DNA of 64,000 bases from an uncultured delta proteobacterium (GTDB lineage: Bacteria > Desulfobacterota > RBG-13-43-22). Below, in pieces: positions 8,171 to 57,176 of this stretch. The notes under the pieces are model-generated. The model saw only the letters and a list, made by a program, of their open reading frames with translations. It was not told where the DNA came from and did not search any database. Numbering within the stretch: the first letter of the stretch is position 1; every line of letters begins with the position of its first letter. The stretch lies in assembly GCA_963746605.1 (NCBI GenBank), contig CAVVCH010000054.1, positions 21,366-85,365 of the forward strand, given 5' to 3'. The position numbers and the translations under genes are program-made.

Positions 8171-10266
8171 ATGAAATTTTTTTTTGAACCCCGGGGAGTG
8201 GCTGTCATCGGCGCCACGCCCAAGCCCAACACCGGCGGCTTAAGTCTGATCACCAACCTGACCCTGGGCTACGACGGCCCGATTTACCCGGTCAACCCCC
8301 GTTACTCGGAAATCGTCGGCCTCCCCTGTTACCCGCGCATATCCGAAGTCCCCGATCCCATCGAATTGGCCCTGATCTTCGTTCCGGCCCCCGGCGTACC
8401 CTCCGTGCTGGAGGAATGCCTGGCCCGCGGCTTGAAAGGGGCCATCATCGAATCCGGCGGCTTTGCCGAAGTGGGTCCCGAGGGAAAGGCCCTTCAGGAC
8501 CGCTGCCTGGAAATCGCCCGCCGGGGCGGAATGCGGCTCTGGGGTCCCAACTGCATGGGACTGATCGATATCCGGAAACGATATGTTTTTTCCTTTCTCA
8601 CCCCGGATGCCTGGCAGGATGTGTTAAACCCCGGGGGCGTCTCGCTGATCGTTCAGAGCGGCCTGCTGGCCGGCGGTTTTATGACCACCCTCATGAGCCA
8701 TAAGACCCTCGCCCTGGCCAAGGCCTGCTCCATCGGCAATAAAAGCGACGTGGATGAAACCGATCTGCTGGAATATTTCTTGGAAGATGCCGACACCCGG
8801 GTCATCGCTCTCTACGTCGAGTCGTTCCCCCGGGGGCGGCGTTTTTTCGATCTGGCCTCCCAGGGGAAAAAACCCATCGTGGTGCTCAAGGGGGGTAAAA
8901 GCGCCTCCGGCGCCCGGGCAGCCGCTTCCCACACGGCTTCACTGGCCGGGAACTTTGAACTGGTCCGGGGCGCGCTGGACCAGGCCGGGGTTTATCAGGC
9001 CGATGATTTTTTTGAGCTGGTGGACCTGGCCCGGACCCTGGAAATGGATTTCGTTCGGGACCGGCCCGACGAAGGGAAAACCCCGGGTGGGTGTCTTTAC
9101 CTTCAGCGGGGCCGCCGGGATCGTGACCAGCGATCACCTGGAGGCCGAGGGCCTGACGCTGGCCACCCTTTCTCCGGAAACCCGGCAGCGGTTGGAACAA
9201 TATTCTCCCTCTTGGATGCCGGTGAACAATCCGGTGGATTTCTGGCCGGCCATGGAAAAACATGGTCCGGAGATCACCTACCGGGAAGGGCTGGCCGCCC
9301 TGGTGAACGATCCCGGGGTGGACGGGATCATCGTTCATCTTTTTGCCGGGTTCGGGGTCTGGTTCCTGGATATGGAAAAAATTCTGTCCGGCCTCCCACG
9401 ACCCTGCAAGCCCATCCTTTTCTGGGTCATGGGCCATGAGAAAGGTTTTCAGGCCACCCGGCTGGCCATCGAAAAACAGGGCTTCCCGGTCTTCAACGAA
9501 ATCCAACGGGTGGTCCGGGTGCTGGCCGGAATTCTGGAAGGCCGGGAAACAGGAGCCGTTGCCCCCGAAAAACACACTCTCCCGGATTGAACCGCTGCTC
9601 CGACAGATAAAACAAGCGATCGAAGTCCGCCCGGAAAAGGTTCTGGATGAGTGGGAGTCCAAAAAGATACTCCGGGAATTGGGCTTGGCCACCGTGCCGG
9701 AAATCCTCGTCGAGGACCTGCCGGGCGCCCTGGAAGCAGCCCATTCCTTCGGCTACCCGGTGGTGCTTAAAGGCCGGTCACCGGGTCTGGTCCATAAGAC
9801 CGAGGCCGGCCTGGTTCGACTCGACCTCCACACCCCGGAACAGCTGCAATCCGCATTCCGGGAAATGACCGCCCGCCCAAATCCTCCCGCCTCTTTTATG
9901 GTTCAACCGCAGCTCAAAGGCGACCTGGAATTAATCGTCGGGGTGGTCAGGGACCCTCAATTCGGGCCGGCGGTGATGCTGGGCCTGGGGGGGATCCGGG
10001 CCGAAATTTACCGGGATGTGGTCTTTCGCCTGGCTCCGGTAACTGAGGAAACCGTCCGACGCATGGCGGAAGGGTTGAAAGGTCAGGTACTTTTCCAGGG
10101 CTATCGGGGGGCCGCCCCGGTGAAGATGGATTTATTAGCAGAATGGTTGATTCGTTTGGGAGAATTGGCCTGCCAGGTGGAGGCCATCCAGGAAATCGAC
10201 GTGAATCCCCTGTTGGTGGTGCAGGGAGAGCCGATCGCCGTGGATGCCTCCATTATTCTAAGATGA
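8171..10266 (+). pseudogene. Acetate--CoA ligase (ADP-forming) / CoA-binding family protein split into three ORFs by two frameshifts
   Basis: ORFs 8171..9439, 8754..9590 and 9343..10266 carry, in order, the CoA-binding domain (VAVIGATPKPNTGG), the central domain and the ATP-grasp domain; frame changes near 9080 and 9575 coincide with homopolymer runs. Confidence 0.7.
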
Positions 10267-16609: not shown

Positions 16610-17500
16610 GGTTCTGGCAAAAATCAGCCCCTCCCCACACCACCTAGCATGCGGGTCCGCACTAGGCGGTTCCCAGAGGCTACCGAGCCGTAGCCGGGTA
16701 ATGGATGTTTACCCACTGATCTTTGACAGACAGCAAACCTTGATCCTTGAGTCACGCCAAGGCGTGATCATGCCTGTCTGGGTGGCCAGCGTGCGTGAGA
16801 GTCGCCAGGGGCCTTTCCGGCTCATCCCGACCGAGATAGCGGTCCGCAGGTGTTCATTGGGATTGGGCTTATCGGCAACGCGCCGGCCACTCGCTCCCCC
16901 GGACGGGTTTATGGCGATGGTCGAGCTTACCGGGCCTTTTCCCTGCTCTGGGTTCGGTCCTTCGTTCGTTGATGGCGAACTACTATGACCTCGGCTGACT
17001 CCTGCCCGGTCAATCGACATGTTTCCAGGCCGGATGCTGTCCAATGTTAACTGGACCGCCTGCCGAACAGGTCTCCCCGGACTCAGTTCAGTACTCCCTC
17101 AGGGGTTAAGACGTGATCTGTCGTTACACAACCGCGGCATTTACCGCGTCTCCTAAACCCGGGGCTTTGTCATGTCGTGCTGACTTACCCGGAGACTTGG
17201 CCTTGTATGCCATTTCTGTACCCCGGATCAGGTCCGGGGCAGGCTTGGCTCATAGCTTTGCGCTCCAGCTTCCTTCGGACGATCCCTCGCGAGCATCGCC
17301 CTTGCTTTCGGCTAGTATTTATGTTCCTGTCTTACGACAGTACGGGTTTACATCAGGGGACTTTCACCCCATAAGATCACGCCCATGCCGGGCGTACACT
17401 AGAATCGTTCGCACCGGATCGGCACCGCTACCCCGGGACAAAACGCGGACATGAAGCTGGTCTCGTGACAAAATGGTCGAGGCTACCGATGGAAAGGATT
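16610..17500. other. ORF-free GC-rich segment of about 0.9 kb; candidate structured RNA or decayed element
   Basis: Six-frame ORFs here give only Pro/Arg/Ser/Gly-rich non-protein-like translations; many local hairpins, e.g. CCCCGGA-ucagg-UCCGGGG at 17221-17239. Confidence 0.2.
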
Positions 17501-20842: not shown

Positions 20843-21823
20843 ATGAGCCGACCTTTGCGCATCCGATATCCCGGGGCGGTATATCACGTCACCTGTCGGG
20901 GCAATGACCGTCAGGACATCTTCCGGGACAATACGGACCGGACGGAGTTCCTGGAAATCCTGGCGGGGTCCCAAACCATCTATAACGTGAAGATGTATGC
21001 CGGGGTTTTGATGGGGAACCATTTTCATTTGCTGCTGGAGACCCCTCTGGGCAATCTGAACGAATTCATGCGGCGGTTTAACATCACTTATACCGGCTAT
21101 TTCAACCGCCGGCACCGGCGGGTGGGCCACTTGTACCAAGGCCGATATAAAAGCATTCTGGTAGAAAAAGAGAGCTATCTGTCCGAGCTGTCCCGTTATA
21201 TCCACTTGAACCCGGTCCGGACCCGAGAGCTGGAATCGGAGGACGCCAAAGTCCGGTGGCACTATCTGCTGGACTATCCCTGGAGCACCCTACCGGGATA
21301 TTTGAATGTCAAAGACCGATGGCCGGGAGTGGATTACGGGTTGGTTTTAGGTGAATTCGGCGGGGACAACCCGAAGGGACGGCGTGGTTATGGAAAACGG
21401 ATCCGAGAGGACCTCGTCGGGGGCATCGAACTGAAAGGAAAAATAGTCGGCGGGTGTGTTCTGGGCCGGGCGGGTTATATCCAATGGGTCCGGGAAAAAC
21501 ACATTAAGGAACTGCCGGTCGGGGATTACACCGGATATAAAGCCTTGAAACGCTATCGATCCAAGGAGCAGGTCCTGGATTTGCTGGCAGTAGAAACCGG
21601 CCTGAGTTTGGAAGAGGTTAAATCTTCCAAGGGGGACCGGCGCCGGTTGGCCATGGAATTGCTGTACCGGGTGGGCGGATTGACCGGAGACGAGATCGGA
21701 AGCCTTTTCGGGATAGGCGCCAGCGCAGTCAGTCAGGAAAGGAAAAGGCTGGTGTCCCGAATGGCGGAAGATGAGGCCGTGAAAAAGCTGTTTGAGGAAC
21801 TGTTTTCGAAATGTTCGGTATAG
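20843..21823 (+). CDS. Y1 HuH transposase-like protein with C-terminal DnaA-like HTH domain, full-length paralog
   Basis: 326 aa; HuH motif HFHLLL, tyrosine region YQGRYKS, C-terminal ...GLTGDEIGSLFGIGASAVSQERKRL. Confidence 0.75.
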   Translation: MSRPLRIRYPGAVYHVTCRGNDRQDIFRDNTDRTEFLEILAGSQTIYNVKMYAGVLMGNHFHLLLETPLGNLNEFMRRFNITYTGYFNRRHRRVGHLYQGRYKSILVEKESYLSELSRYIHLNPVRTRELESEDAKVRWHYLLDYPWSTLPGYLNVKDRWPGVDYGLVLGEFGGDNPKGRRGYGKRIREDLVGGIELKGKIVGGCVLGRAGYIQWVREKHIKELPVGDYTGYKALKRYRSKEQVLDLLAVETGLSLEEVKSSKGDRRRLAMELLYRVGGLTGDEIGSLFGIGASAVSQERKRLVSRMAEDEAVKKLFEELFSKCSV

Positions 21824-29154: not shown

Positions 29155-30626
29155 CTAATCGATCCAATCAAAAGTGCGGGTGACGGCCTTCTGCCAACCG
29201 CGATACAGCCGGTCGCGCCGTTCCTCCTCCATGTGGGGCTGCCAGGTTTTGTCGGCCTGCCAGTTTCGGCGCAGTTCCTCCAGATTGGACCAGAAGCCGA
29301 CCGCCAGGCCGGCTGCGTAAGCCGCCCCGAGAGCGGTGGTTTCGGAGATCCGGGGACGGATGACCGGGACATCGAGGATGTCCGCCTGGAACTGCATCAG
29401 CAGCTCGTTTTGGACCATCCCGCCGTCCACTCGCAGGGAGCGCAACCGAACGCCGCTGTCTTTGTTCATCGCCTCCAGCACTTCGCGGGTCTGATAGGCC
29501 GTGGCTTCCAGGGCGGCCCGGGCGATGTGCCCCTTGTTCACGTAGCGGGTCATCCCGACGATGGCCCCCCGGGCGCTGTCCTTCCAGTAAGGCGCGTATA
29601 ACCCGCTGAAGGCCGGCACGAAGTAGATGCCGCCGTTGTCGTCCACGGAGCCGGCCAGTTCCTCCACTTCGGCGGCCTGCCCGATCAGACCGAGGTTGTC
29701 CCGCAGCCATTGCACCAGCGCGCCGGCTACGGCGATCGAGCCTTCCAGGGCGTAGATCGGTTTTTGCTTCCCCAACCGGTACCCCGGAGTGGTCAGCAGG
29801 CCGTTTTTCGAAGGCACCGCGGTTTCTCCGGTGTTGATCAGCATGAAGCAGCCGGTACCGTAGGTGTTCTTGGCCTCACCGGGGGAGAAGCAGGTCTGCC
29901 CGAACAGGGCGGCCTGTTGGTCGCCGAGAATCCCCGATACCGGCACGCCCTGGCGCGTATGGCCGTAAACCTCACTCGAGGAAACGATCCGGGGCAGCAG
30001 GGCTCGGCGGCACCCCCAGTTCGCGGAGAAGGTCTTCATCCCAATCCAGGGTCTCCAGGTTCATCAGCAGGGTCCGACCGGCATTGGTCACATCGGTCAC
30101 GTGAGCGCCGGTCAGGTTCCAGACCAGCCAGGCGTCGATGGTCCCGAACAATAATTCGCCGTTTTCGGCCCGCTTTCGGGCGCCGGGCACCTGGTCCAGG
30201 AGCCAGAGGATTTTCGGGGCCGAGAAATAGGTGGCCAGCGGCAGGCCGGTCTTTGGCCGGAATCGATCCTGCCCCCCCTGCGCGGCCAGTTCGGCACAGA
30301 GGCCGGCCGTGCGCGTATCCTGCCAGACCAGGGCGTTGTAGATCGGGCTGCCCGGTGGACTTTTCCCAGATCACCGTTGTCTCCCGCTGGTTGGTAACGC
30401 CGATGGCGGCCAGGTCGCCCGGTTCGCCCCGGACCAATCCCAGGGCCTCGGCGAACACCCCCAGAGTCCGGGCCCAAATCTCGGTCGGGTCATGCTCCAC
30501 CCAACCCGGTCGCGGATATATCTGCCGGTGCTCCTGCTGGGCAGCGGCCTTCGGCTGCCCCGCCTGGTCAAAAAGAATACATCGGGTACTGGTGGTCCCC
30601 TGATCGATGGCAGCGACGTATTTCAT
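29155..30626 (-). pseudogene. glpK: Glycerol kinase split into three or more ORFs
   Basis: ORFs 30036..30626 ([15 protein letters not shown]), 29972..30190 and 29155..30039 (...[11 protein letters not shown]...[11 protein letters not shown]...) together give a complete GlpK. Confidence 0.75.
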
Positions 30627-34853: not shown

Positions 34854-34982
34854 GTTGCTGGTTGCTGGTTGCTGGTTTTATTTCCAATCGGTTTCAACAA
34901 ATTCAATAAACTTATTGATCTTTCTCCCTAATTCATCATTTTCTTGTTTTGAATATTCAACCAGTAACCAGCAACCAGCAAC
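34854..34982. repeat. Family E element: inverted arrays of GTTGCTGGTT-type repeats around an AT-rich spacer
   Basis: GTTGCTGGTTGCTGGTTGCTGGTT (34854-34877) ... AACCAGTAACCAGCAACCAGCAAC (34958-34981). Confidence 0.7.
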
Positions 34983-35986: not shown

Positions 35987-37711
35987 ATGAACCTGCGCAT
36001 TGCCCTGGCCCAGATCAACGCTATTGTAGGGGACCTTCCGGGAAATCGCCGGAAGATCGAAGTGCAATTGGAACTGGCCCGAAAGCAGGAAGTGGACCTG
36101 GTGGCCTTTCCGGAAATGGCCGTCACCGGATATCCGCCCGAGGACCTGCTCCTGAAACCGGATTTCGTTTATGCCGCCCGGCAGGTCCTCCTGGACCTCC
36201 TTCCCCAAACCAAAGGGTTGGTGGCCGTTATCGGCGGCCTCTGGGTGGAAGACGATCTCTATAACAGCGCCCTGGTCGTGGCCGACGGTCAAATCCAGGC
36301 GGTCTATCATAAACAATTGCTTCCCAATTACGGGGTTTTTGATGAAAACCGCTACTTCAAGGTGGGGCAAGCCAATGCCGTGTTTCGCTTGGGCGAGGTT
36401 TGTTTCGGGGTCAGCGTCTGCGAAGACCTCTGGTACCCGGACGGCCCGGCCCAGGAACAGGCCGGTCCAGGCGGGGCCCAACTGCTGATCAACATCTCCT
36501 CCTCTCCTTTTTACCTGGGCAAGGGAGGCGATCGGGAGCGGATGCTGGCCACCCGGGCGGCGGACAATCGATCCTATCTGGCCTATTGCAACCTGGTAGG
36601 CGGGCAGGATGAACTGGTCTTCGACGGACAGAGCCTGATTTTCGGTCCCCAGGGAGAACTCCTGGCCCGGGCATTCCAATTTGAGGAAGATTTTCTGGTA
36701 GCCGATCTGGACCTGACCGAAGTCTTTCGCTGGCGTCTCTTTGATCCGCGACGGCGGAAGCAGCCCCGAGAGAACAGCGGCCGCCTAAGGGAGATCGTTA
36801 TTCCGCCCTTTCATCCGGTTTCCAAGACGGTCCCCGTCGAACCTAAAAAGCAAGTGCCTCTGAACCGTTCCGCCGAAGGATACCGGGCCCTCGTCTTAGG
36901 CACCGGAGACTACGTGCGCAAGAACGGATTTAAGGAAGTGGTGCTGGGTCTTTCCGGCGGGGTGGATAGTTCCCTGACCGCCGTTCTGGCCGCCGATGCC
37001 CTGGGGCCCGAACGGGTGCACGGCATTGCCCTGCCCACCCGTTTTTCCTCTTCTCACAGTCTGGAAGACGCCGAGCAATTGGCCCAAAATCTTGGCATTC
37101 ATTTTTCCGTCATCCCCATCGACACCCTATTTCAAACCTACCTGGAGGTCCTGAACCCCCATTTTCGAGGGCTGCCGGAGGAACTGACGGAGGAAAACCT
37201 GCAACCCCGAATCCGGGGAACGATCCTGATGGCCCTTTCCAATAAATTCGGCTGGCTGGTGCTGACTACCGGGAACAAGAGCGAGACCGGTGTGGGGTAT
37301 TCCACCCTTTACGGAGATACGGCCGGCGGATTCGCCGTGCTGAAGGATGTGCCCAAGATCCTGGTCTACGAACTGTGCCGTTACCGGAATCAAATCGCCG
37401 GGAAAGAGCTTCTTCCCCGCCGGGTCCTGGAAAAACCCCCTTCCGCGGAGCTTCGTCCTGACCAGAAGGATTCCGATTCCCTCCCCGAATACGACCTGCT
37501 GGATCCCATTCTTCAGGCCTATGTGGAAGAAAGTTGCTCCCTGGAGGAGATAGTCCGGAGGGGTTTTGATCAGGGCTTGGTGGAAAAGGTGATCCGCCTG
37601 GTGGACCGCAACGAATACAAACGCCGCCAAAGCCCGCCGGGCATCAAAATAACCACCCGGGCCTTCGGCAAGGACTGGCGTTTGCCGATTACCAATCGCT
37701 ACCAGCGGTAG
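35987..37711 (+). CDS. nadE: Glutamine-dependent NAD+ synthetase
   Basis: 574 aa; N-terminal CN-hydrolase domain (AFPEMAVTGY, EDLWYP) and C-terminal NAD synthetase domain (GLSGGVDSS). Confidence 0.9.
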   Translation: MNLRIALAQINAIVGDLPGNRRKIEVQLELARKQEVDLVAFPEMAVTGYPPEDLLLKPDFVYAARQVLLDLLPQTKGLVAVIGGLWVEDDLYNSALVVADGQIQAVYHKQLLPNYGVFDENRYFKVGQANAVFRLGEVCFGVSVCEDLWYPDGPAQEQAGPGGAQLLINISSSPFYLGKGGDRERMLATRAADNRSYLAYCNLVGGQDELVFDGQSLIFGPQGELLARAFQFEEDFLVADLDLTEVFRWRLFDPRRRKQPRENSGRLREIVIPPFHPVSKTVPVEPKKQVPLNRSAEGYRALVLGTGDYVRKNGFKEVVLGLSGGVDSSLTAVLAADALGPERVHGIALPTRFSSSHSLEDAEQLAQNLGIHFSVIPIDTLFQTYLEVLNPHFRGLPEELTEENLQPRIRGTILMALSNKFGWLVLTTGNKSETGVGYSTLYGDTAGGFAVLKDVPKILVYELCRYRNQIAGKELLPRRVLEKPPSAELRPDQKDSDSLPEYDLLDPILQAYVEESCSLEEIVRRGFDQGLVEKVIRLVDRNEYKRRQSPPGIKITTRAFGKDWRLPITNRYQR

Positions 37712-37904
37712 TTGCTGGTTACCGGTTGCTGGTTACTCGTTACTGGTTACTGGTGCTGGGTTATGAAGTTCAAATTTCATTCATGAAATCTTCATCGCCA
37801 GTTGAAACGACAGGTTGTATATATCAAGATCTCGGTAGCTTTTCATTTGGCCTCCTTTAGCAATTTGTTCAACCGGCAACCAGGAACGTGCAACCAGCAA
37901 CGAG
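37712..37904. repeat. Family E element
   Basis: GTTGCTGGTTACCGGTTGCTGGTTACTCGTTACTGGTTACTGG ... CAACCGGCAACCAGGAACGTGCAACCAGCAAC. Confidence 0.7.
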
Positions 37905-45798: not shown

Positions 45799-45944
45799 GC
45801 TTGCTGGTTACTGGTTGCTGGTTGCTGGTTGCTGGATAAAAGAAACAAGGGATAAAGAAAACCGGATAGGCGTACAAGACAAGGAAAACCCTAAAGGAAG
45901 CTCCCATGACTTTAACCGGCAACCAGGAACTTGCAACCAGTAAC
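45799..45944. repeat. Family E element
   Basis: GCTTGCTGGTTACTGGTTGCTGGTTGCTGGTTGCTGG ... AACCGGCAACCAGGAACTTGCAACCAGTAAC. Confidence 0.7.
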
Positions 45945-46293: not shown

Positions 46294-46422
46294 ACGTTCC
46301 ACCTTATAAATGGTATTATTATTTTTTACAACAGGGTCGCGCCGCTGGAGTAGAAACTTTTCTTTAACTATGTTAAACTTTCCCTTATTTATTAGCAAAT
46401 GGATTTTAAAAAGGAGGTACCT

Positions 46423-46953
46423 ATGTCTGAGTGGAAGATAGACCCTGACCATACCGCAGCCGCTTTTACCGTTCGACACTTCATGATCACCCTGGTTCGC
46501 GGCCAGTTCAACAAGATTTCCGGGTCCATTCAGTTCGATCCGGCTACTCCGGCCCTGGGGAATGTGACCATCGAAATCGAGTCCGCCTCCATCCATACCG
46601 GCATTCCCAAGCGGGACGAACATCTGCGCAGTCCCGATTTCCTAGATGTGGATAAATACCCGCTCATTCGGTTTAAAAGCACCCGGGTTGAGCCGGTAGC
46701 CGTCAACGGCTTTATTTTAACCGGCGATTTGACCATTCGGGGCGTCACCCGATCAATCGCCCTGGATGCGGAATACCTCGGTCAGGTCAAAAGCCCTTTT
46801 GATGAGGATATCAGCATCGGCTTTTCGGCCTCGGCCCGGATCAACCGCCAGGATTTCGGGGTAAGCTGGAACTTTGACATGGAAAACGGTGGTCTGGTGG
46901 CCGGGAACCATGTATTCCTGAACCTGGAAGTGGAGGCGGATCTTATTCGGTGA
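46423..46953 (+). CDS. YceI-family protein
   Basis: YceI-like layout (WKIDPDHT..., GDLTIRGVTR); RBS AAAAAGGAGG before ATG 46423. Confidence 0.85.
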   Translation: MSEWKIDPDHTAAAFTVRHFMITLVRGQFNKISGSIQFDPATPALGNVTIEIESASIHTGIPKRDEHLRSPDFLDVDKYPLIRFKSTRVEPVAVNGFILTGDLTIRGVTRSIALDAEYLGQVKSPFDEDISIGFSASARINRQDFGVSWNFDMENGGLVAGNHVFLNLEVEADLIR

Positions 46954-46969: not shown

Positions 46970-48607
46970 ATGATGCTTAAGAAAGGCAAAACCTACGAAG
47001 AAGTCTACCGCTCGTTTAAATGGAAAGTTCCCAAATTCTACAATATCGGGGTGGACTGTTGCGACAAGTGGGCCGATCAGCGCTACCGCCTGGCCTTGAT
47101 CTACGAAGACGAGCAGGGCCGGGTTGAGAAATATACCTTCTGGGAACTCAAGCGGCTCTCCAACCGCCTGGCCAACGCCTTGCAGGCCTGCGGCCTAGAA
47201 CAGGGAGACCGGGTGGGGATCCTGCTGCCGCAATGCCCGGAGACGGCCCTGTCCCATCTGGCTATCTATAAAACCGGGGGGATCGCCCTCCCGCTTTTCA
47301 CCCTCTTCGGTCCGGAGGCCCTGGAATACCGTCTGGCCAACAGCGGCGCCCGGGCGGTGATCACCGACGAAGGCAATCTCCCCAAAATCCTGGAAATAAA
47401 GGATCGCCTGCCCGAGTTGAAAGCCGTCATCGTCACCCGGGGAGAAACTCCGGAGGGGGTGGTCGATTTCTGGAAAATCCTGGAAAAGGGTTCCTCTTCC
47501 TTTACCCCGCTGCGGACCAGAGCCGATGATCCGGCCCTGATTATCTATACCTCCGGCACCACCGGTCCGCCCAAAGGGGCCCTCCATGCCCAGCGGGTGG
47601 TTCTGGGGCATGTTCCCGGAGTGGAATTCTTCCATAATTTCTTTCCCAAAAAAGATGACCTGTACTGGACGCCGGCCGACTGGGCCTGGATCGGCGGGTT
47701 GATTGACGTCTTGCTGCCGAGCTGGCACCACGGGGTCCCGGTGGTCGCCTTCCGGGCCAAAAAATTTGATCCCGAGCAGGCCTTTCATTTTATCGCCAAG
47801 TACGGTATCCGCAACGCCTTCATGCCGCCCACGGCACTGAAGATCATGCGCCAGGTCCAGGACCCGGGGAAGCGGTACGATTTCGCCATGCGAACCATCG
47901 GCTGCGGCGGGGAGACCCTGGGCGAAGAACTCCTGGAATGGGGCCGCAGGGTCATGGGGCTTACGATCAATGAATTCTACGGACAAACGGAAGTGAACCT
48001 GGTCCTGGGCAATTGTTCCGAGATCATGGAGAACCGGCGGGGTTCCATGGGCCGTCCTATCCCCGGCCATCGGGTGGAAGTGGTGGACGGAGCAGGCCGC
48101 GTCCTCCCGCCGGGAGAGGTCGGAGAGGTGGCCATCCAGCGGCCGGACCCGGTCATGTTCCTCGGTTATTGGGGCAATCCCCAAGCCACGGAAGACAAGT
48201 TCATCGACGACTGGAGCCTGACCGGCGACCTGGCCCGCAAGGACGAGGAGGGCTATTTCTGGTTCGTGGGCCGCAAGGACGACCTCATCAGCAGCGCCGG
48301 CTACCGGATAGGGCCGGCCGAGATCGAAGATTGTCTGATCAAGCATCCGGCCGTGGCCATGGCCGGGGTCATCGGCAGCCCCGACGCAGTGCGGGGGGAA
48401 ATCGTCAAGGCCTTTATCGTTCTTAAGCCCGGGGTACCCCCCGAGCCTTCTCTGAAGGAAGAAATCCAGCAGTTTATTAAAACCCGTCTGGCCGCCCATG
48501 AGTACCCCCGAGAAATCGAGTTCCTGGCCGAACTGCCTTTGACGGCTACCGGCAAGATCATGCGCAAGGATCTGCGGCAGATGGACATGGACCGCAAAAA
48601 GGGGTAG
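46970..48607 (+). CDS. AMP-dependent synthetase/ligase (acyl-CoA synthetase)
   Basis: 545 aa; IIYTSGTTGPPKG, GYWGNPQATE, TGDLARKDEEGYFWFVGRKDD. Confidence 0.9.
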   Translation: MMLKKGKTYEEVYRSFKWKVPKFYNIGVDCCDKWADQRYRLALIYEDEQGRVEKYTFWELKRLSNRLANALQACGLEQGDRVGILLPQCPETALSHLAIYKTGGIALPLFTLFGPEALEYRLANSGARAVITDEGNLPKILEIKDRLPELKAVIVTRGETPEGVVDFWKILEKGSSSFTPLRTRADDPALIIYTSGTTGPPKGALHAQRVVLGHVPGVEFFHNFFPKKDDLYWTPADWAWIGGLIDVLLPSWHHGVPVVAFRAKKFDPEQAFHFIAKYGIRNAFMPPTALKIMRQVQDPGKRYDFAMRTIGCGGETLGEELLEWGRRVMGLTINEFYGQTEVNLVLGNCSEIMENRRGSMGRPIPGHRVEVVDGAGRVLPPGEVGEVAIQRPDPVMFLGYWGNPQATEDKFIDDWSLTGDLARKDEEGYFWFVGRKDDLISSAGYRIGPAEIEDCLIKHPAVAMAGVIGSPDAVRGEIVKAFIVLKPGVPPEPSLKEEIQQFIKTRLAAHEYPREIEFLAELPLTATGKIMRKDLRQMDMDRKKG

Positions 48608-48757
48608 AATGGTTGCAAGTTGCTGGTCTGGACTTGATCCTGGATCCAGGCAGCTCGAAGCTTGAAAGGCCTGGATTCCGGCTTCCGCCGGAATGACGAA
48701 CCTTCAATAAGCTAATCAATTTTCATGCTTCGTGGGTGTCCGCCCCGGGCATGGGGG

Positions 48758-48855
48758 TTTAATACGAAAATAACCAAAGACAGGGTTCAAGGGGTCGAGT
48801 GTAGGGGAGGGGTTAATCCCCTCCCGCACCCAGCCGGGCATAAATCATACTCCTG
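48758..48855. repeat. Family B composite element containing palindrome GTAGGGGAGGGGTTAATCCCCTCCC
   Basis: TTAATACGAAAATAACC...GGGTTCAAGGGGTCGAGTGTAGGGGAGGGGTTAATCCCCTCCCGCACCCAGCCGGGC; paralogous copy at 57011-57176, palindrome again at 63861-63885. Confidence 0.65.
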
Positions 48856-48946
48856 GACTCGAAAACCCGTCGGCCATCCCAGATATTAGGGGAGTACCGA
48901 CCCAAAAGGGCGAAACATAAATCACCGAAGAAAGGAGGTGAAGCGG

Positions 48947-49051
48947 GATGAAAAAAAAGATGAACCCGGAGGGTTTGGTTAAAGAGGCAGCTTTTTGGGC
49001 CAAAATGAAGGCAGCCGCAAAGGAAGGTCCCAAGACAGTGTGCCACAAGTG
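48947..49051 (+). CDS. Small ORF (34 aa) with strong RBS upstream of the radical SAM/SPASM gene; candidate precursor or leader peptide
   Basis: AAGGAGGTG 9 nt upstream of ATG; MKKKMNPEGLVKEAAFWAKMKAAAKEGPKTVCHK then TGA-AAA-GGG-TGA-AAA-TCG-TAA; hairpin TTGCTG-GTT-CAGCAA at 49073-49087. Confidence 0.35.
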
Positions 49052-49195
49052 AAAAGGGTGAAAATCGTAAACGTTGCTGGTTCAGCAATGGAATCAAAGG
49101 GCGGATACGGGGGGAGGCGCAAAAGGAGCATTGCCAACCTGCCCTTTATCCGCCCTTCTCCTTATTACCCCTAAACTCAAAAAAAGGCCTGAACG

Positions 49196-50242
49196 ATGCA
49201 GACCGACCACCCCTTTGATTTCTTTTTTCAATGGCATCTGACCGAAAAATGCAATCTTCATTGCCTCCACTGCTATCAGGAAAAAGGGCCATTGGAGGAA
49301 TTCACTTTTTCTGAAATCAAAGAAACCCTGAACGAGATATCGCTCATGCTGGAAGACTGGTCGAAGAGCTATGACCTGGCTTTCCAGACCAGCATCAATG
49401 TTACCGGAGGGGAGCCTTTCTTACGACCCGACCTGTTCCCCATTCTCGAGGAAATGATTCAACACGGGTATGACCTTTATCTCCTGTCCAACGGGACCCT
49501 CCTGGACCGGGATAAGGCCCGCCGTCTAAGCCGCCTGCCGGTTCGGGGAGTCCAGGTCAGCCTGGAAGGGCTGGAAAAGACCCATGAGGCCCTCCGGGGA
49601 AAAGGCAGTTTTGCCGGAGCGGTAAAAGGGATCGAGTACCTGGTGGAAGCCGGGATTCCGGTCACCATCAATACCACCTTATCCGAGATCAACCGGGAAC
49701 AGTTTTTGGAGATGATACCCTTGGCCCAGGCCTTGGGAGCCCAGCGGTTGGGGTTCTCCCGATTGATCCCCGCTGGCCAGGGAGCCCTGCTTTCTTCCCA
49801 ACTGTTAAAACCGGATCAAGTCCGAGGACTTTACCAGGAAATCCATTCCCTCGCTCCCCGCGGATTGGAACTGGTCAGCGGTGATCCGCTTTATCGGCAA
49901 CTGGATTCAGGCAATGATCAGGAAGACCTGGGAAACATCCCTCGCGGTGGGTGCGCGGCCGGGGTGTCCGGTTTGACCTTGATGGCCGACGGAACGGTGA
50001 CTCCCTGCCGCCGGTTACCGGTCCCCCTCGGGAACGTGCGCCAGGACTCCCTGCGTGAACTTTGGAGCAATTCTCCGGTGTTGGAAATGCTGCGGGATAA
50101 AACCAGTTACCAAGGAAAATGCGGCCGCTGCCGCAGATGGGCCGCCTGCCGGGGATGCCGCGCCATGGCCTACGCCTTTTCCCGGGCCGGCGGCCACAAC
50201 CATCTGGTCGACGAAGACCCGCAATGTTTTTTGGAGCCCTAG
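49196..50242 (+). CDS. Radical SAM/SPASM domain protein (AhbD/NirJ/PqqE-like)
   Basis: 348 aa; CNLHCLHC (CxxxCxxC) cluster, C-terminal Cys-rich SPASM region (GGCAAG...CGRCRRWAACRGC...DPQCF). Confidence 0.85.
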   Translation: MQTDHPFDFFFQWHLTEKCNLHCLHCYQEKGPLEEFTFSEIKETLNEISLMLEDWSKSYDLAFQTSINVTGGEPFLRPDLFPILEEMIQHGYDLYLLSNGTLLDRDKARRLSRLPVRGVQVSLEGLEKTHEALRGKGSFAGAVKGIEYLVEAGIPVTINTTLSEINREQFLEMIPLAQALGAQRLGFSRLIPAGQGALLSSQLLKPDQVRGLYQEIHSLAPRGLELVSGDPLYRQLDSGNDQEDLGNIPRGGCAAGVSGLTLMADGTVTPCRRLPVPLGNVRQDSLRELWSNSPVLEMLRDKTSYQGKCGRCRRWAACRGCRAMAYAFSRAGGHNHLVDEDPQCFLEP

Positions 50243-50271
50243 ATGCCCTTTCAATCGGAGGTAACGAGCCG

Positions 50272-52438
50272 ATGAACTCCCCCAGCGATCCATACCCCCC
50301 GGGATGCGCTTTCCCCCTCGGGGCCACTGTCGGCCCGGAGGGCGTCAATTTTAGCGTCTATTCCAAAAACGCAGACAAAGTGGACCTGCTTCTGTTCGAC
50401 CGGGCCGATGACGCTCGACCGGCCCGGATCATTTCCCTGGAACCAAATAAAAACCGGACTTATTTTTACTGGCATGTCTTCGTCCCCGGCCTGTCTTGCG
50501 GACAGATTTACGGCTATCGTGTTTTTGGCCCTTATGAACCGGAAAAAGGGCTGCGTTTTGACGGCCAAAAGGTTCTGCTGGATCCCTACGGAAAGGCCTT
50601 GGCAACGCCGCTTAATTACAGCCGTCTGGCCGCCGGCCTTCCGGGAGACAACACGGCCACGGCCATGAAGAGCGTGGTGGCGGATTTGAGCCTTTACGAT
50701 TGGGAGGGGGACGCGCCGCTTCGACGCCCTTTTTCCAATACCATTATCTATGAACTGCACGTCCGGGGGTTTACCCGTCATCCCAGTTCGGGTGTGCCAG
50801 CCGGATAAGCGGGGCACCTACGCCGGGTTGATCGAGAAAATCCCCTACCTGCAGGATTTGGGAATCACCGCCGTGGAACTGCTACCGGTCTTTCAATTCG
50901 ATGAACAGGATGCGCCCCCCGACTTCAAGAACTACTGGGGCTACAGCCCGGTCAGCTTCTTCGCCCCTCACGGGAGTTACTGCTCCTGCCGAGACCCCCT
51001 CGGTCCGCTGGATGAATTCCGGGATATGGTCAAGGCCTTGCACCGATTTGGGATCGAGGTGATCCTGGACGTGGTCTTTAACCACACGACCGAAGGGCAC
51101 GAATTCGGTCCGACGCTTTGCTACCGCGGTTTTGAAAACCGGGCCTACTACATCCTGGAAGCCGCCACCGGCCGGTACGCCAACTATTCGGGCTGCGGCA
51201 ATACCCTCAATTCCGGCAACTCCATCGTCCGACGGATGATCATCGATAGTTTGCACCACTGGGTCAAGGAGATGCACGTGGACGGCTTCCGTTTTGATCT
51301 GGCCGCCATTCTCTCCCGAGATGAAACCGGCCAACCGCTCGCCAATCCCCCGGTCCTCTGGGATATTGAATCCGACCCGGTCCTGGCCGGCACCAAGCTG
51401 ATTGCCGAGGCCTGGGACGCAGCCGGCCTTTACCAGGTAGGCAGCTTTGTCGGAGAAAGTTGGAAGGAATGGAACGGCAAGTTTCGGGATGATGTGCGGG
51501 GTTTCATCAAAGGCGATAGCGGCGTCGTCCCCTCGGTGGCCTCCCGTCTGTTGGGCAGCCCGGACCTTTATGGCGGGCAGGAACGCGAGCCGGAACAAAG
51601 CATCAATTTCATCACCTGCCACGACGGTTTCACCCTGAATGACCTGGTCTCTTACAACACCAAACACAACGAGGCCAACGGCGAGGAAAACCGCGACGGG
51701 ACCGACGACAACCTGAGTTGGAACTGCGGGGTGGAAGGTCCCACGGATAACCCGGAAATCGAAAAGCTCCGCAACCGCCAGGTAAAAAACTTTATGACCA
51801 TCACCCTTTTGGCCCTCGGGGCCCCCATGCTGCTCATGGGCGATGAGGTCCGGAGGACCCAGCAAGGCAACAACAACGCTTACTGCCAGGACAACGAAAT
51901 CAGTTGGTTTGATTGGGACCTGCTGGCTAAACACGGGGACCTGCACCGTTTCGTCAAGAACCTGATTGCGGCCCGCCTGCACACGGACACTTTCACTCCC
52001 AGCCAGGAGTTAACCTTGAGCCAGATCATCAGGCAGGCCCGTATTCATTGGCACGGGGTCAAACTCAGCCAACCCGATTGGAGTCCGGATTCCCATAGCC
52101 TGGCCTTGACGGTCTGGAGCCGCCGAGGCCGGCTGTTGACCCACATCATGTTGAACGCCTACTGGGGGCCCCTGGCCTTTGAACTACCGCCCGTTCAGAA
52201 CCTGCAGGGCAAGGCCTGGCACCGGTGGATCGACACCGCGCTGGATCCCCCCGAGGACATCGGCACTTGGGCTCACGCCCCTGCCGTTTCCGGATCTACC
52301 TACCCGGTGCAGCCCCGATCCATCGTGGTCCTGATGGAACGGATTGCGAAAGGATGTCGCCTAACAAGGAAAATGGACGATAATACGATATCTTTTGAAC
52401 GGTCCGTGACAGGATCGTCATTCCCGCAGCGCTTCTGA
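50272..52438 (+). CDS. glgX: Glycogen debranching enzyme GlgX, one frameshift near 50790-50810
   Basis: ORF 50119..50808 from MNSPSD holds the N-terminal domain; ORF 50750..52438 holds the GH13 catalytic domain (GFRFDLA, EAWD). Confidence 0.8.
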
Positions 52439-53582: not shown

Positions 53583-54587
53583 ATGATCTTGGCAGGAGAC
53601 ATCGGCGGGACCAACACCCGCCTGGCGGTGGTGAACATGGACCAGGGCCGGCTACGAATCGAGGCCAAGGAAATTTTTCCTAGCCGGGAACAGCCCAGCC
53701 TGGATACGGCCGTTCGCAAATTTATCGCTCACCATCCGGCACCCTTCGCTTCCGTGGTTCTAGGGGTGGCCGGGCCAATCCGGATGGGCCGTTGCGAGGC
53801 CACCAATCTCCCCTGGATCGTAGATGCCCGCTCGCTGGCCCGGGAACTGCACCAGGAACGGGTCGAGCTGATCAACGACCTGGAGGCCTGCGCCCATGGA
53901 TTGGCGGAATTGGGGCCGGACGATCTCGTGGTCCTAAACGAAGGGGAGGCCGCGGCCCGAGGTAATGCCGGTCTGCTGGCGGCCGGTACCGGATTAGGGG
54001 AAGCCGGCCTTTACTGGGATGGGGGGAAATTCCACCCTTTTGCCTCTGAAGGCGGGCACGTGGACTTTGCCGCGCGCAATCATCTGGAGATAGAGCTGTT
54101 GGATTACCTGCTAAGAAGGTATTCCCGGGTCAGCGTGGAACGGGTGGTGTCCGGACCCGGCCTGTATAATATCTACCAATTTCTCCGGGATACCGGCCGG
54201 GGCGAGGAGACACCGGTCCTGGCCGAGGAAATCCGCCGGAGTGACCCGCCGGCGGTAATCACCCGGTGGGCACTGGAAGGAGGCGATCCTCTCTGCGAGG
54301 ATGCCCTGAGCCTCTTTGTCAACTGCTACGGAGCGGAAGCCGGGAACCTGGCCATGAAGTTGCTGGCCACCGGCGGGGTCTATTTGGGTGGAGGGATTGC
54401 GCCCCGGATTATCCCCCGATTGCAGCACCCGGATTTTATGAACGCCTTTACGTCCAAGGGGAGGCTGAACCCGCTGTTGCAGCAGATACCCGTGCGCGTC
54501 ATCCTCAACCCGGACACCGCGCTGCTCGGAGCGGCCCGCTACGCCTTGGACAAGGATCCGGCGGCCACAAACGACCGGATTAGTTGA
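53583..54587 (+). CDS. glk: Glucokinase
   Basis: 334 aa; GDIGGTNTRLA ATP-binding N-terminus, GGHVDFA motif. Confidence 0.9.
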   Translation: MILAGDIGGTNTRLAVVNMDQGRLRIEAKEIFPSREQPSLDTAVRKFIAHHPAPFASVVLGVAGPIRMGRCEATNLPWIVDARSLARELHQERVELINDLEACAHGLAELGPDDLVVLNEGEAAARGNAGLLAAGTGLGEAGLYWDGGKFHPFASEGGHVDFAARNHLEIELLDYLLRRYSRVSVERVVSGPGLYNIYQFLRDTGRGEETPVLAEEIRRSDPPAVITRWALEGGDPLCEDALSLFVNCYGAEAGNLAMKLLATGGVYLGGGIAPRIIPRLQHPDFMNAFTSKGRLNPLLQQIPVRVILNPDTALLGAARYALDKDPAATNDRIS

Positions 54588-56181
54588 TAGCCGCGCTGTC
54601 CTCCAGGAAACAAAAGGGGTCTCGGTCCTGGAATATATTCAGGCCCATTCCGTAGGCCACGGCCAGGCATCCGCCGCAGACCGGACGGAGGGGACAGGCG
54701 CGGCAAGCCGCGGTGCCGGCCCGGTAGCGCCGCGCCGGTTCGGAATCGTACAGTTCCAGCAGGCTGTTTTCCAGGATATTGCCCAGGGGAGAGGGCAACT
54801 TCCGGCAGGCGTGGACTTCGCCGTCGGGCAGGACGGTGATAAAATTGAAGGCCGCGCTGCAGCCGAATCCGGCGCAGCCCCCGAAGAGGGGGATCCCCTG
54901 GCGATGATGGAGGATATTGATCAGGTTGTCCTTGATCCCCATGACCGGGTTTTTTTCCGCCGTCCGCAGGTAGGCAGCCAGAAAAGCGGCATATTCCTGG
55001 CGGTCGGGGACTTGCAGGTTAGCCCCTTCCCCCACCTGGGAGAGGCGATTAAAAAAGAAGCTGTCGGCCTTCCCCTGAAGCCGTTCGGCCAAGGGGATCA
55101 CTTGGTCCATATTATCCCGGGTCAGCGTCAGCATGACCATGGAATAGAGGTTCAATTCCTTAAGGATCCCCAGGAATTCCATTACCCGGTCAAAATGACC
55201 CGGACCACGGATCCAATCGTTGTGTTCCCGCAGCCCTTCCAAACTGACCTGAAAAAAATGGGGTTCCTGGATGGCCCGGATTTCCAGCAGTCGTTCGCGG
55301 GAGGTGGGGTTCCCCAGGATGGCCGTGCCGAACCCCAATCCCGCTGCCGCCCGGTATAGTTCGTTGAATCGAGGATGAAGCAGGGGATTGCCGCCCGTGA
55401 AACTGACCTGACCTTGAACCCGCTTTTCCCGACAGAATCGATCCAGGTCGTTTAGAATTTTCATTTCCTGCTCCCAGTTCAAGGGAGGGCGCGGACTGCG
55501 GTCGTAACAATGTTTGCAGTGGAGGTCGCAGGCTTGGGTGATGTGCCACTGAAGGGTAAACGTCGGGGACTCCAGAAATTCCCGGCCCCGGATGGCACTC
55601 TGGGGATAAGCCGCCGGGTCTCTTCGGATCTTCGACCGGGGGGGAATCAGAAGTCCCTCCCGCGCGGCCTGCTGCAGAACATTCTCAAGGGCCGCCTGCG
55701 GGACCCCGCCGGAGGCGGCGGCGGATTCCAAGGCCACTTCCTCCAGCACAATCTTCAGCGCTAACAGGTCTTCTTCCCGGGCCGCCCGGGACAGGACCTC
55801 TCGCGTCTCCGCATTCCGCCAGACCAGGACCAGCTCCTCACCCGGCTCCGGAGCAATAGGCTTCGCCTTCCCGGCGGCCTGGACCAGGTGAACCAGGTTT
55901 TTATAAGAAAATTGCATCAGCCGCAGAGCGGGGTTGACGATGACCCGGTCGGGGTCCGGATCACTCTCCGCCGACCCCAAACTCGCCTGATAAAGTCCCC
56001 ATTCCAAGCGGGTCAGATCAAAGAGAAAAGGGGGGCAGCCACTCGCCAAGGAAGTCTCCGCCAAAAATCCGGGGAAATCCTCGGGGGATCTCCCGGCCTC
56101 CACTTGGGCTTTAAAGGTTTCCCAGTCGGCGGGCCTTATGTAAGAACGGCTTACCGGATAAATCTTTTCGAGGGTTTCCAT
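54580..56181 (-). CDS. Radical SAM/SPASM domain protein with about 200-aa N-terminal extension (paralog of 49196..50242)
   Basis: 533 aa; CDLHCKHC cluster, SPASM region (GGCAGFGCSAA...CRACPLRPVCGGC...DPFCF); shared blocks with the first gene such as QWH(L/I)T and (F/V)QVSLEGL. Confidence 0.85.
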   Translation of the reverse strand: METLEKIYPVSRSYIRPADWETFKAQVEAGRSPEDFPGFLAETSLASGCPPFLFDLTRLEWGLYQASLGSAESDPDPDRVIVNPALRLMQFSYKNLVHLVQAAGKAKPIAPEPGEELVLVWRNAETREVLSRAAREEDLLALKIVLEEVALESAAASGGVPQAALENVLQQAAREGLLIPPRSKIRRDPAAYPQSAIRGREFLESPTFTLQWHITQACDLHCKHCYDRSPRPPLNWEQEMKILNDLDRFCREKRVQGQVSFTGGNPLLHPRFNELYRAAAGLGFGTAILGNPTSRERLLEIRAIQEPHFFQVSLEGLREHNDWIRGPGHFDRVMEFLGILKELNLYSMVMLTLTRDNMDQVIPLAERLQGKADSFFFNRLSQVGEGANLQVPDRQEYAAFLAAYLRTAEKNPVMGIKDNLINILHHRQGIPLFGGCAGFGCSAAFNFITVLPDGEVHACRKLPSPLGNILENSLLELYDSEPARRYRAGTAACRACPLRPVCGGCLAVAYGMGLNIFQDRDPFCFLEDSAAIN

Positions 56182-56424: not shown

Positions 56425-56602
56425 TTGCTGGTTATTTTCGAATCAAATAAAAGAGGCCGGAACAGATACGATCTCGGATCGTATTGGCCCCGGCCCCCGG
56501 AAGGACTGCCGGCGGATAAGCGCCGGCCTGCAATGGTTGGAAACATTTTGGTTAAACGGCTCTCTGATGGATCGGATAGCGCCACCGGCGCTATTTCTTT
56601 CC

Positions 56603-56735
56603 GCTTCAGGAGCTTGGCGCGGCGGGTTTCGTGTCGGTGCTACCTGCATCGGGTTTAGTCCCGCTTCAGGAGCTGCCGGCTTTTTTCTCGGTTTGGGTGC
56701 TACCTGCATCCGGTTTGGACCCGCCTCAAGCGCTC
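56603..56735. repeat. Tandem repeat, 60-bp period, about 2.2 units
   Basis: Unit GCTTCAGGAGC...GGTGCTACCTGCATCGGGTTT at 56603 and 56663, partial third unit at 56723; about 75% identity between units. Confidence 0.6.
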
Positions 56736-56833
56736 TTGCCATTGGCGCACCCGGAAACCCCTAAACTGGAGCCGGCAATCAGGCTGGCAATACTCAACCC
56801 GGCCAACATCTTTTTGAGCTGGTTCATTTCCAT
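56726..56833 (-). CDS. Small ORF (35 aa) with signal-peptide/lipobox-like sequence and strong RBS, upstream of the second radical SAM/SPASM gene
   Basis: GGAAGGAGGTG 7 nt upstream of ATG; MEMNQLKKMLAGLSIASLIAGSSLGVSGCANGKSA then TGA; the same frame continues through the 60-bp repeats with an in-frame TGA in each unit. Confidence 0.35.
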   Translation of the reverse strand: MEMNQLKKMLAGLSIASLIAGSSLGVSGCANGKSA

Positions 56834-57010: not shown

Positions 57011-57176
57011 TTAGTACGAAAATAACCGAATAGGGTACGAGGGAACCAGGGTTCAAGGGTTCGAATGTAGGGGAGGGGTTCATCCCCTCCCGGACCCAGC
57101 CGGGCCTATATCATGCCCTGGGAAAAATCTGAATCCTTAATTCCCAAGCTCGGGAGGGGGTTAACCCTCCCCTACT
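57011..57176. repeat. Family B composite element (paralog of 48758-48855) with two GGGAGGGG-TTAA-CCCCTCCC palindromes
   Basis: TTAGTACGAAAATAACC...GGGTTCAAGGGTTCGAATGTAGGGGAGGGGTTCATCCCCTCCCGGACCCAGCCGGGC...CGGGAGGGGGTTAACCCTCCCCTAC. Confidence 0.65.

Follow-up and report, generated by a model that had tools for sequence, protein, structure and literature searches.

Among described systems, small peptides with UGA-encoded selenocysteine (Sec, U) and an adjacent radical SAM/SPASM enzyme are represented by SbtA/SbtM, a thio(seleno)oxazole 'selenobiotic' system that was reportedly described by Haft and Basu (2011) and by Lewis et al. (2021). Within the literature searched, it is the only natural Sec peptide for which modification by a radical SAM enzyme is on record, with SbtM abstracting the beta-hydrogen of Cys/Sec to give a thio(seleno)oxazole (PMC9204691). 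Here, we analyse a stretch of 64,000 nucleotides (nt) from an uncultured delta proteobacterium (this whole stretch is hereafter called the window), in which a short gene with two in-frame TGA codons and a downstream hairpin precedes a gene for a radical SAM/SPASM protein of 348 amino acids (aa). We consider it probable that the two genes form a module, composed of a peptide of about 40 residues with two Sec and a dedicated radical SAM/SPASM enzyme by which this peptide is most likely modified. Related loci that were fetched for comparison carry locus codes (L001 etc.).

The module resembles SbtA/SbtM in its small peptide with UGA-encoded Sec near the C-terminus, in hairpins with a GGU-type loop, in the adjacent SPASM enzyme and in its occurrence in similar anaerobes. 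Unlike SbtA, the studied peptide has neither a signal-like N-terminus nor G/S-U-G/S repeats, its Cys-only homologues are almost absent, and its two Sec sit in a C-terminal CxxUxxU served by one common hairpin (a putative selenocysteine insertion sequence, SECIS) after the stop; moreover, the window peptide and seven relatives gave no match to the SbtA model TIGR04081 at E up to 10. The enzymes differ as well, since the studied one has 348 aa with CX3CX2C at residue 19, whereas SbtM carries an extra N-terminal part of ~200 aa.

A further likeness is found in the SCIFF/ranthipeptide systems (CteA/CteB, Tte1186a/Tte1186; PapA/PapB), which are also lineage-wide two-gene modules of a conserved ~40-45-residue peptide and a SPASM maturase, with no transporter or protease. 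Their peptides are Cys-rich and, unlike the studied one, not natively Sec-containing, and their maturases have an N-terminal recognition element (RRE) of the kind known from peptides that are ribosomally synthesised and then modified post-translationally (RiPPs). PapB and Tte1186 make chalcogen-carbon cross-links and accept Sec in place of Cys, with Se on the iron of an auxiliary cluster (PMC10177961). The pairs PqqA/PqqE and MftA/MftC likewise combine a small cytoplasmic precursor with a SPASM enzyme that alters C-terminal residues, and their redox product is not exported; however, they need the PqqD/MftB chaperone and further enzymes alongside, none of which was found at the studied module.

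The module occupies the forward strand of the window, with the following elements:

48932..48940, + strand: Shine-Dalgarno sequence AAGGAGGTG, read from the sequence, with a 7-nt spacer to the ATG
48948..49070, + strand: putative selenopeptide gene, 40 codons plus TAA, predicted product MKKKMNPEGLVKEAAFWAKMKAAAKEGPKTVCHK-U-KG-U-KS
49072..49090, + strand: hairpin of bacterial SECIS type, CGUUGCUG-GUU-CAGCAAUG, in the 3' untranslated region, 10 nt after the second UGA (UGA2) and 19 nt after the first (UGA1)
49097..49157, + strand: long G+C-rich hairpin with a T-rich stretch behind it, terminator-like by predicted fold
49196..50242, + strand: radical SAM/SPASM enzyme of 348 aa by its Pfam domains, presumed maturase

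The peptide gene starts with ATG at 48948 and continues through 34 sense codons (i.e. MKKKMNPEGLVKEAAFWAKMKAAAKEGPKTVCHK), after which its frame reads TGA (49050-52), AAA GGG, TGA (49059-61), AAA TCG and TAA (49068-70). All the elements listed in a first-pass annotation of this DNA (the 34-codon open reading frame (ORF), its strong ribosome-binding site, the frame TGA-AAA-GGG-TGA-AAA-TCG-TAA, the hairpin and the 348-aa gene) were recovered at the positions it gave, although its 'two further in-frame TGAs' have to be recounted, as the in-frame TGAs total two, namely the 'stop' of the ORF itself and one more. A strong Shine-Dalgarno sequence ahead of a short ORF is unremarkable by chance standards, and a scan of 48600-49300 found no sigma-70-like promoter site.

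Conservation of the peptide gene and its two TGA codons

The enzyme homologues led to 160 further loci, each of which was aligned to the window enzyme. The closest relatives (L001 and L002, enzyme identity 83-99%) keep a near-identical small ORF, and enzymes that are 55-62% identical lie in different gene surroundings in Desulfobulbaceae, Nitrospiraceae and other metagenome-assembled genomes, with a called 34-codon ORF just upstream. An enzyme with an identity of at least 41% to that of the window was present in 32 loci, of which 28 carry an intact peptide gene; in the other four, the contig is cut within the hairpin (L095), the peptide gene is degraded (L090) or no peptide was found (L097, L099). 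The carriers are Thermodesulfobacteriota (including Syntrophales), Nitrospirota, Deferribacteres and Chloroflexota (Dehalococcoidia), and none of the loci at or below 36% enzyme identity (AhbD-like; Desulfovibrio, methanogens, Bathyarchaeia and others) has a peptide gene. Peptide subtype and enzyme identity run in parallel, with CHKUK found at 53-89%, CRKUSS at 51%, CLAUKSUKGK at 44-46% and CFSUKKUKNQ/CYSUKKCKGK at 41-43%.

The start context GGAGGTGA-N6/7-ATG is retained in four relatives (L001, L002, L003 and L006). Over the 34 codons, the ratio of non-synonymous to synonymous substitution rates (dN/dS) lies at 0-0.06 in close pairs, and the differences are mostly at third codon positions (window versus L002: 0 non-synonymous and 5 synonymous changes). 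Five residues (E13, C32, U35, U38 and K39) are invariant in an alignment of 23 peptides, the consensus of which reads M..(K)EAxFW...K....C-x-x-U-[K/S]-x-U-K-x(-x)-stop. The small ORF and its TGA codons, the conservation of which the first-pass annotation had proposed to examine, are therefore kept in relatives under strong purifying selection, and from these alignments we take the small ORF to be a real and widely conserved gene.

A word search with the single peptide recovered three near-identical ORFs only, and the wider family needed a profile: a profile search of 5.8 billion proteins gave peptide matches in 151 clusters at 90% identity, and an exhaustive HMMER search gave 128 peptide representatives at 50% identity. 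Among the 120 database peptides read, 119 end exactly after C-x-x (they are annotated 'hypothetical protein') and are therefore truncated at the first TGA by gene callers. One database sequence, in which TGA was translated as Trp, reveals the pattern CHK-TGA-KS-TGA-KS. The family thus marks a blind spot of gene prediction. The peptide and seven relatives, with each U entered as C or X, were scanned against NCBIfam and Pfam and matched no family there, selenoprotein families included, and nothing like the peptide is listed in the 2026 review table of prokaryotic selenoproteins (PMC13188914). A description of the family was not found in Pfam, NCBIfam, Rfam or the literature searched (an earlier description elsewhere is possible), and we rate both the peptide family and the enzyme clade as apparently new, given that no NCBIfam release 20 or Pfam model exists for them. 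Selenoprotein finders in present use work from Cys homologues (PMC12013277); being tiny and almost devoid of these, the family may for that reason have been missed by surveys.

Both UGAs are kept in 25 of 26 distinct loci, the exception being L111, with TGC (Cys) at the second site. Across these 26 loci the codon after TGA2 is AAA or AAG, the one that follows specifies Ser (as TCG, TCC, TCA, AGT or AGC) or, in other loci, Gly, Thr, Gln or Asn, and an in-frame TAA, TAG or TGA stands 2-3 codons past UGA2, just ahead of the hairpin (26/26). A full-length all-Cys version (P0222, locus L168) reads ...CLACKSCKGK, versus ...CLAUKSUKGK in its relatives, with TGT at both sites; Cys at both sites occurs in 1 of about 250 sequences. 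The TGAs of the peptide gene are not sequencing errors, because the same ones recur in dozens of independent assemblies, and a reassigned genetic code is not the explanation, since TGA terminates 9 of the 28 Pfam-supported genes of the window in the usual way.

Could translation simply stop at the first TGA, so that the product is a 34-mer and the conserved part downstream is a regulatory RNA or a terminator? Gene callers all stop there, no Rfam SECIS model is matched and the combination of TGA and hairpin is not enriched in the window, all of which would agree with it. We nevertheless regard this as very unlikely, as the sequence past the TGAs varies in a coding pattern (Lys as AAA/AAG; Ser as TCN/AGY; exchange of Gly, Ser and Thr), the in-frame stop is always there, at varying codons and positions, TGA is replaced by TGC (L111) or TGT (P0222), the terminator hairpin is a separate element, and the GU loop of the first hairpin is lost together with Sec. 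The hint of recoded TGAs with a SECIS hairpin that was given in the first-pass annotation gains support from the same coding-pattern variation and Cys replacements, and from the covariation described below. We thus interpret the product as a peptide of ~40 residues with two Sec, read through two TGAs by means of one hairpin after the stop.

The hairpin after the stop codon

The hairpin has a core of TTGCTG-GTT-CAGCAA (49074-49088) that extends to 8 bp as CGTTGCTG/CAGCAATG (49072-49090). A hairpin of 6-8 bp begins 9-12 nt after TGA2 in all the 26 loci; in the hairpin alignment, 87.9% of the cells are paired and 7 of the 8 pairs have changed on both sides (24 cells), values that were reached by 0 of 500 shuffles, and a slid partner gives 14-54% pairing. 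The stems are largely remade in L010 (TCCCGC/GCGGGA), L011, L092 and L098. The loop nearly always contains G followed by U, and its first nucleotide is nt 20-23 if the U of UGA2 is taken as the start of the count.

The Escherichia coli fdhF SECIS (verified at 100% identity inside fdhF) was folded in the same way as the window hairpin. Both are short hairpins with G and U in an apical loop that starts ~22 nt from the U of UGA, the loop being GGUC at nt 22-25 in fdhF and GUU at nt 22-24 (counted from UGA2) in the window. At L168, where both Sec are replaced by Cys, the stem is retained, the loop has become TGACA and the GU loop is lost. The alignments establish that four or more phyla retain both UGAs, in a peptide gene led by a Shine-Dalgarno sequence and with an fdhF-like hairpin after its true stop, and on this comparative basis we assign the hairpin as a SECIS. 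SaoC provides a precedent for a SECIS past the stop codon, and Haft describes a stem of 7 bp with a GGU loop in such a position as a SECIS (bioRxiv 10.1101/2022.07.06.499078).

In distinction to fdhF and to the UXX-star/UxxU selenoproteins, the studied hairpin must serve two UGAs that lie 9 nt apart. The spacing between UGA and SECIS matters in E. coli, and the bSECISearch model is said to allow 16-37 nt between UGA and loop. The longer spacing of UGA1 appears to work, because L111 keeps UGA1 alone with the hairpin spacing unchanged.

The first-pass annotation had also pointed to a heptamer repeat of the window ('family B') near both of its cassettes, and to the chance that the hairpin is just another copy of this GTTGCTG repeat, unrelated to the ORF. 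The 10-mer GTTGCTGGTT of the hairpin does match the repeat exactly, and it has 27 matches in the window with at most 1 mismatch, against 2.9 expected. The repeat itself occurs as tandem GTTGCTG/GTTACTG arrays of 3-5 copies, set as inverted pairs around ~80-120 nt of unique intergenic sequence:

34854-34982: tandem heptamer array, intergenic
37711-37901: tandem heptamer array, intergenic
45800-45944: tandem heptamer array, intergenic

None of the related loci fetched, the syntenic L001 and L002 among them, has such arrays, which were judged to be a lineage-specific repeat. The hairpin, on the other hand, is present and covarying in relatives without arrays, holding a fixed distance from UGA2 with compensatory changes in 26/26 loci across phyla, by which its origin as a repeat copy is ruled out for all practical purposes; the 10-mer shared by the two appears to be a coincidence, and the nearby family B element plays no part in the module.

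Within the window, SECIS-like hairpins placed 8-13 nt behind a TGA are no more frequent than expected (3 occurrences versus a shuffle mean of 4.45), so that the significance of the arrangement rests on the comparison with other genomes.

The radical SAM/SPASM enzyme and its presumed substrate

The enzyme matches the Pfam domains Radical_SAM (PF04055, 82 bits) and SPASM (PF13186, 43 bits), and the cysteines C19/C23/C26 (CX3CX2C) and C253, C271, C309, C312, C318, C321 and C344 (SPASM) are invariant in 19 homologues. Seven SPASM cysteines in related enzymes hold two auxiliary clusters, one of them with a free iron site. The closest folds to its AlphaFold model (predicted local distance difference test score, pLDDT, 82.6) are SkfB, SuiB, BlsE, anSME, PqqE and ChlB, and a sequence search of the PDB retrieved SkfB, PqqE and MoaA, weakly; the fold search and the solved structures thus place the enzyme among SPASM enzymes generally and leave its chemistry unsettled.

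The 25 best matches in NCBIfam release 20 were examined against the curated equivalog cutoffs. All the equivalogs score below cutoff (bits/cutoff: AhbD (TIGR04545) 180.4/500, NirJ2 164/500, ACGX 154/400, SbtM (TIGR04082) 153.8/350, MftC 135/265, PqqE 77/381), the match to the SbtM model covers its positions 199-516 only, and the SCIFF/ranthipeptide models are not among these 25, except PapB (65 bits).

With AhbD (180 bits) and NirJ2 (164 bits) as best NCBIfam matches, with the size, domain order and absence of an RRE shared with AhbD/NirJ, and with the label 'AdoMet-dependent heme synthase' that JGI gives to some homologues, one might suppose an AhbD/NirJ-type radical SAM enzyme of heme or tetrapyrrole synthesis, next to which the small ORF is incidental. 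This we hold to be highly improbable, since the scores reach only about a third of the 500-bit cutoffs, and the AhbD-like relatives (at most 36% identity) constitute a separate group without the peptide, whereas the peptide linkage spans four phyla. Furthermore, AhbD and NirJ have tetrapyrroles as substrates and are encoded in ahb or nir operons, while no ahb or nir genes lie nearby in the loci inspected (neither ahbA/B/C nor other siroheme-pathway genes were called in about ten neighbourhoods). The assignment to heme or cofactor synthesis, raised as an objection in the first-pass annotation, therefore does not hold, and we place the enzyme in what seems a distinct clade of SPASM enzymes, defined by its partner peptide.

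A second cassette of the window, on the opposite strand, is attributed by its model scores to the known SbtA/SbtM selenobiotic system:

56833..56591, - strand: SbtA, 80 codons (TIGR04081, 41.4 bits, cutoff 30.5)
56181..54580, - strand: SbtM (TIGR04082, 716.6 bits)

The in-frame TGAs of SbtA are located at 56728, 56668 and 56608 on the minus strand (SAUGG, SSUSG and SSUSGKK-stop, respectively); the third UGA is accompanied by a hairpin after the stop (AUAGCGCC-GGU-GGCGCUAU) and the first two by weaker fdhF-like elements (GGAUGC-AGGUA-GCACC). The first-pass annotation had treated the two radical SAM genes as paralogous cassettes, which is right insofar as both combine a small ORF with a SPASM enzyme, but the enzymes are only 30% identical over the catalytic and SPASM regions (with the alignment beginning at SbtM residue 208), and the second belongs to a different, known family. 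Similarly, the likeness it saw between the start contexts of the two small ORFs is real (AAGGAGGTGA-N6-ATG is common to both), yet amounts to a generic strong ribosome-binding site.

The RiPP-type architecture proposed in the first-pass annotation finds its counterpart in a conserved precursor, with leader and core, beside a modifying enzyme; that the peptide is the substrate of this enzyme (i.e. a RiPP in the strict sense) we infer from gene linkage. In the mechanism that we envisage, SelB with Sec-tRNA(Sec) would bind the single SECIS and decode both UGAs, UGA2 at the canonical spacing and UGA1 at a longer spacing that still works. In the clade of the window, the terminator-like hairpin after the SECIS would result in more peptide than enzyme transcript; an excess of precursor transcript is common for RiPP precursors. 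The enzyme, having no RRE, would recognise a helical, Lys-rich leader with the KEAxFW motif, and its SPASM domain, with seven Cys, would hold two auxiliary clusters, with the open iron site of one taking the Cys/Sec side chains of the core, from which (C-terminal CxxUxxU) the 5'-deoxyadenosyl radical would abstract hydrogen. The outcome could be either oxidation and heterocyclisation at Sec, as by SbtM or anSME, or an Se-C (selenoether) cross-link, as by the ranthipeptide and sactipeptide synthases; the data do not discriminate between the two, and we lean slightly towards the SbtM/anSME-type oxidation. The resulting selenopeptide or cofactor would be redox-active or metal-binding and remain in the cytoplasm, as opposed to an exported antibiotic, because the module comes with no transporter or protease and its neighbours include YceI-like proteins, superoxide dismutase, peroxiredoxin and DJ-1.

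An unlikely, though not negligible, alternative is that the peptide works by itself, as a small CxxU/UxxU selenoprotein for redox or metal binding that is functional as translated, and that the enzyme is linked to it in some other way, e.g. with the peptide as a donor of electrons, sulfur or selenium, or as a chaperone. CxxU and UxxU are on record as classic redox/metal motifs of selenoproteins (table in PMC13188914), genes for superoxide dismutase, peroxiredoxin, DJ-1 and a DsrC-like protein are among the neighbours, an RRE is missing from the enzyme, and in L169 peptide and SECIS are intact while the enzyme is reduced to a 21-residue remnant. Against it, the pairing is tight and specific to one enzyme clade, within which peptide subtype and enzyme have diverged together, and the two genes nearly overlap in the distant clade; in addition, the nearest enzyme structures are peptide- or protein-modifying SPASM enzymes, and the leader motif KEAxFW is typical of a recognition sequence.

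Modification of a di-Sec peptide by the adjoining enzyme remains the reading we favour, and the following observations weigh against it. On the side of the enzyme, the N-terminal RRE extension is missing and the best match to any hidden Markov model is AhbD, a non-peptide enzyme. On the side of gene linkage, the enzyme is present in L097 and L099 with no peptide within 4 kb and 571 nt, respectively; L168 (582-930) has an intact all-Cys peptide gene that adjoins a degraded enzyme gene, so that the sole all-Cys homologue lies in a decaying locus; L169 (8001-8400) has retained peptide, SECIS and terminator next to an enzyme gene that is a 21-codon remnant; and in L090 (1540-1600) an intact enzyme gene accompanies a peptide gene with an internal deletion. 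As for decoding, the single hairpin is at the canonical register for UGA2 but 9 nt farther from UGA1, and the 64-kb window yielded none of selA, selB, selC and selD and no tRNA gene (the SbtA gene with its three UGAs is the only, indirect, sign in the window that the host uses Sec). Likewise, the oxidative-stress role is drawn solely from loose gene neighbourhoods. Finally, the match to bacterial SECIS covariance models that the first-pass annotation had suggested looking for did not materialise: over 48900-49200, at E up to 10, no Rfam SECIS and no other family was matched credibly, the matches consisting of chance microRNA-like ones on the terminator hairpin. According to Haft, server-based SECIS detection failed for accepted selenoproteins too (bioRxiv 10.1101/2022.07.06.499078).

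Two of the decaying loci offer additional detail. The peptide gene of L090 also has a 9-nt deletion, which places the hairpin at 11 nt after UGA1, and the L169 peptide, whose enzyme has been lost, gives a dN/dS of 0.15 versus 0.05 in a comparison for relaxed selection that comprises very few sites.

If the favoured reading is true, the module would hold the second natural Sec peptide to be modified by a radical SAM enzyme, unrelated to SbtA/SbtM and much more widespread, in a family that spans well over 100 sequence clusters and four or more phyla. It would also supply a compact, RRE-less SPASM enzyme with a 40-residue substrate for the study of radical SAM chemistry on selenium, and a natural system for how one bacterial SECIS serves two UGAs 9 nt apart. 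More tentatively, and with considerable doubt, we put forward that the product is a near-obligate di-Sec redox cofactor or antioxidant derived from the peptide, i.e. a selenium counterpart of mycofactocin/PQQ or a SCIFF-like housekeeping selenopeptide, widespread in anaerobes together with YceI-like and oxidative-stress proteins, and made with one SECIS and SelB acting at two spacings.

Gene order, neighbouring genes and other features of the window

The distance between the two genes differs between clades. In the CHKU/CRKU clade, the enzyme gene starts 90-270 nt past the peptide stop, and folding revealed a strong intervening hairpin in 19/19 CHK/CRK-clade loci, with T-rich sequence following in most of them; a scan for inverted repeats with a T-tail flags 14 of the 18 CHK/CRK-clade loci covered. 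In the window, the fold of 49041-49175 has z = -3.4, and the hairpin at 49097-49157 looks, from its predicted structure, like an intrinsic terminator. The stem base of this terminator-like element is similar across distant lineages (GGCGGATA, GCAGATATG, GCAGACATG; loop of 14-43 nt; window, L001-L003 and L088-L100), which may be due to common ancestry or to a sequence-specific function. The distant clade (L010, L012-L017, L111) has no terminator-like hairpin; its enzyme genes begin about 5-26 nt past the stop of the peptide gene, in keeping with translational coupling, and the SECIS is found at or over the start of the enzyme gene. Two loci depart from these layouts: in L011, the peptide gene is separated from the enzyme gene by one for a YceI-like protein, and L100 has ~1.9 kb between the two.

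Upstream of the peptide gene, palindromes of the REP/MITE type (repetitive extragenic palindromes or miniature inverted-repeat transposable elements; GGGGAGGGGTTAATCCCCTCCC and variants) occupy 48722-48832 and recur at about 57060-57170. A piece of ~55 nt (ttttcatgcttcgtgggtgtccgccccggg...aatacgaaaat) is also located upstream of the peptide gene in the window, whereas in L002 it lies between the peptide and enzyme genes. These palindromes and the ~55-nt piece explain the larger spacer of 340 nt before the peptide gene (versus 55-82 nt in L001 and L002).

A possible accessory to the module, by a weak link, is encoded two genes upstream in the lineage of the window:

46399..46953, + strand: YceI-like protein gene (Pfam YceI, 164 bits), no evident signal peptide

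A YceI-like gene is directly downstream of the enzyme gene in L005, L009, L089 and L091, and the YceI-like proteins beside the module (from six lineages) have 159-184 aa, with the domain beginning at residue 1-12 and apparently no signal peptide. In a Nitrospirota lineage (L006/L007, L170-L172) peroxiredoxin and Fe-superoxide dismutase genes are found upstream of the module, joined in L170-L172 by the gene of a DsrC-like protein; a superoxide dismutase gene lies downstream in L093, and a DJ-1/PfpI gene upstream in L092. A transporter, protease or PqqD-like gene was never part of the module in the loci inspected. These gene neighbourhoods weakly favour an intracellular redox or stress function over that of an antibiotic, and hint at a connection with the defence of strict anaerobes against oxidative stress.

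At the gathering thresholds, Rfam matched only group II intron domains in the whole window (RF02001, 93 bits; RF01998, 63 bits), and these RNA domains, along with a gene for an IS200-like Y1 transposase, were mapped to 16957-17296 (minus strand) and 20843-21823. Several genes of the window appear split: GlgX (50119..50808 and 50750..52438; fragmented in L001 and L002 too), an FGGY kinase (29155-30626, split at about 30036) and a gene resembling ADP-forming acetyl-CoA synthetase (8171-10266, split at about 9343-9439). The apparent frameshifts in the window and its closest relatives may stem from long-read indel error or from real decay.

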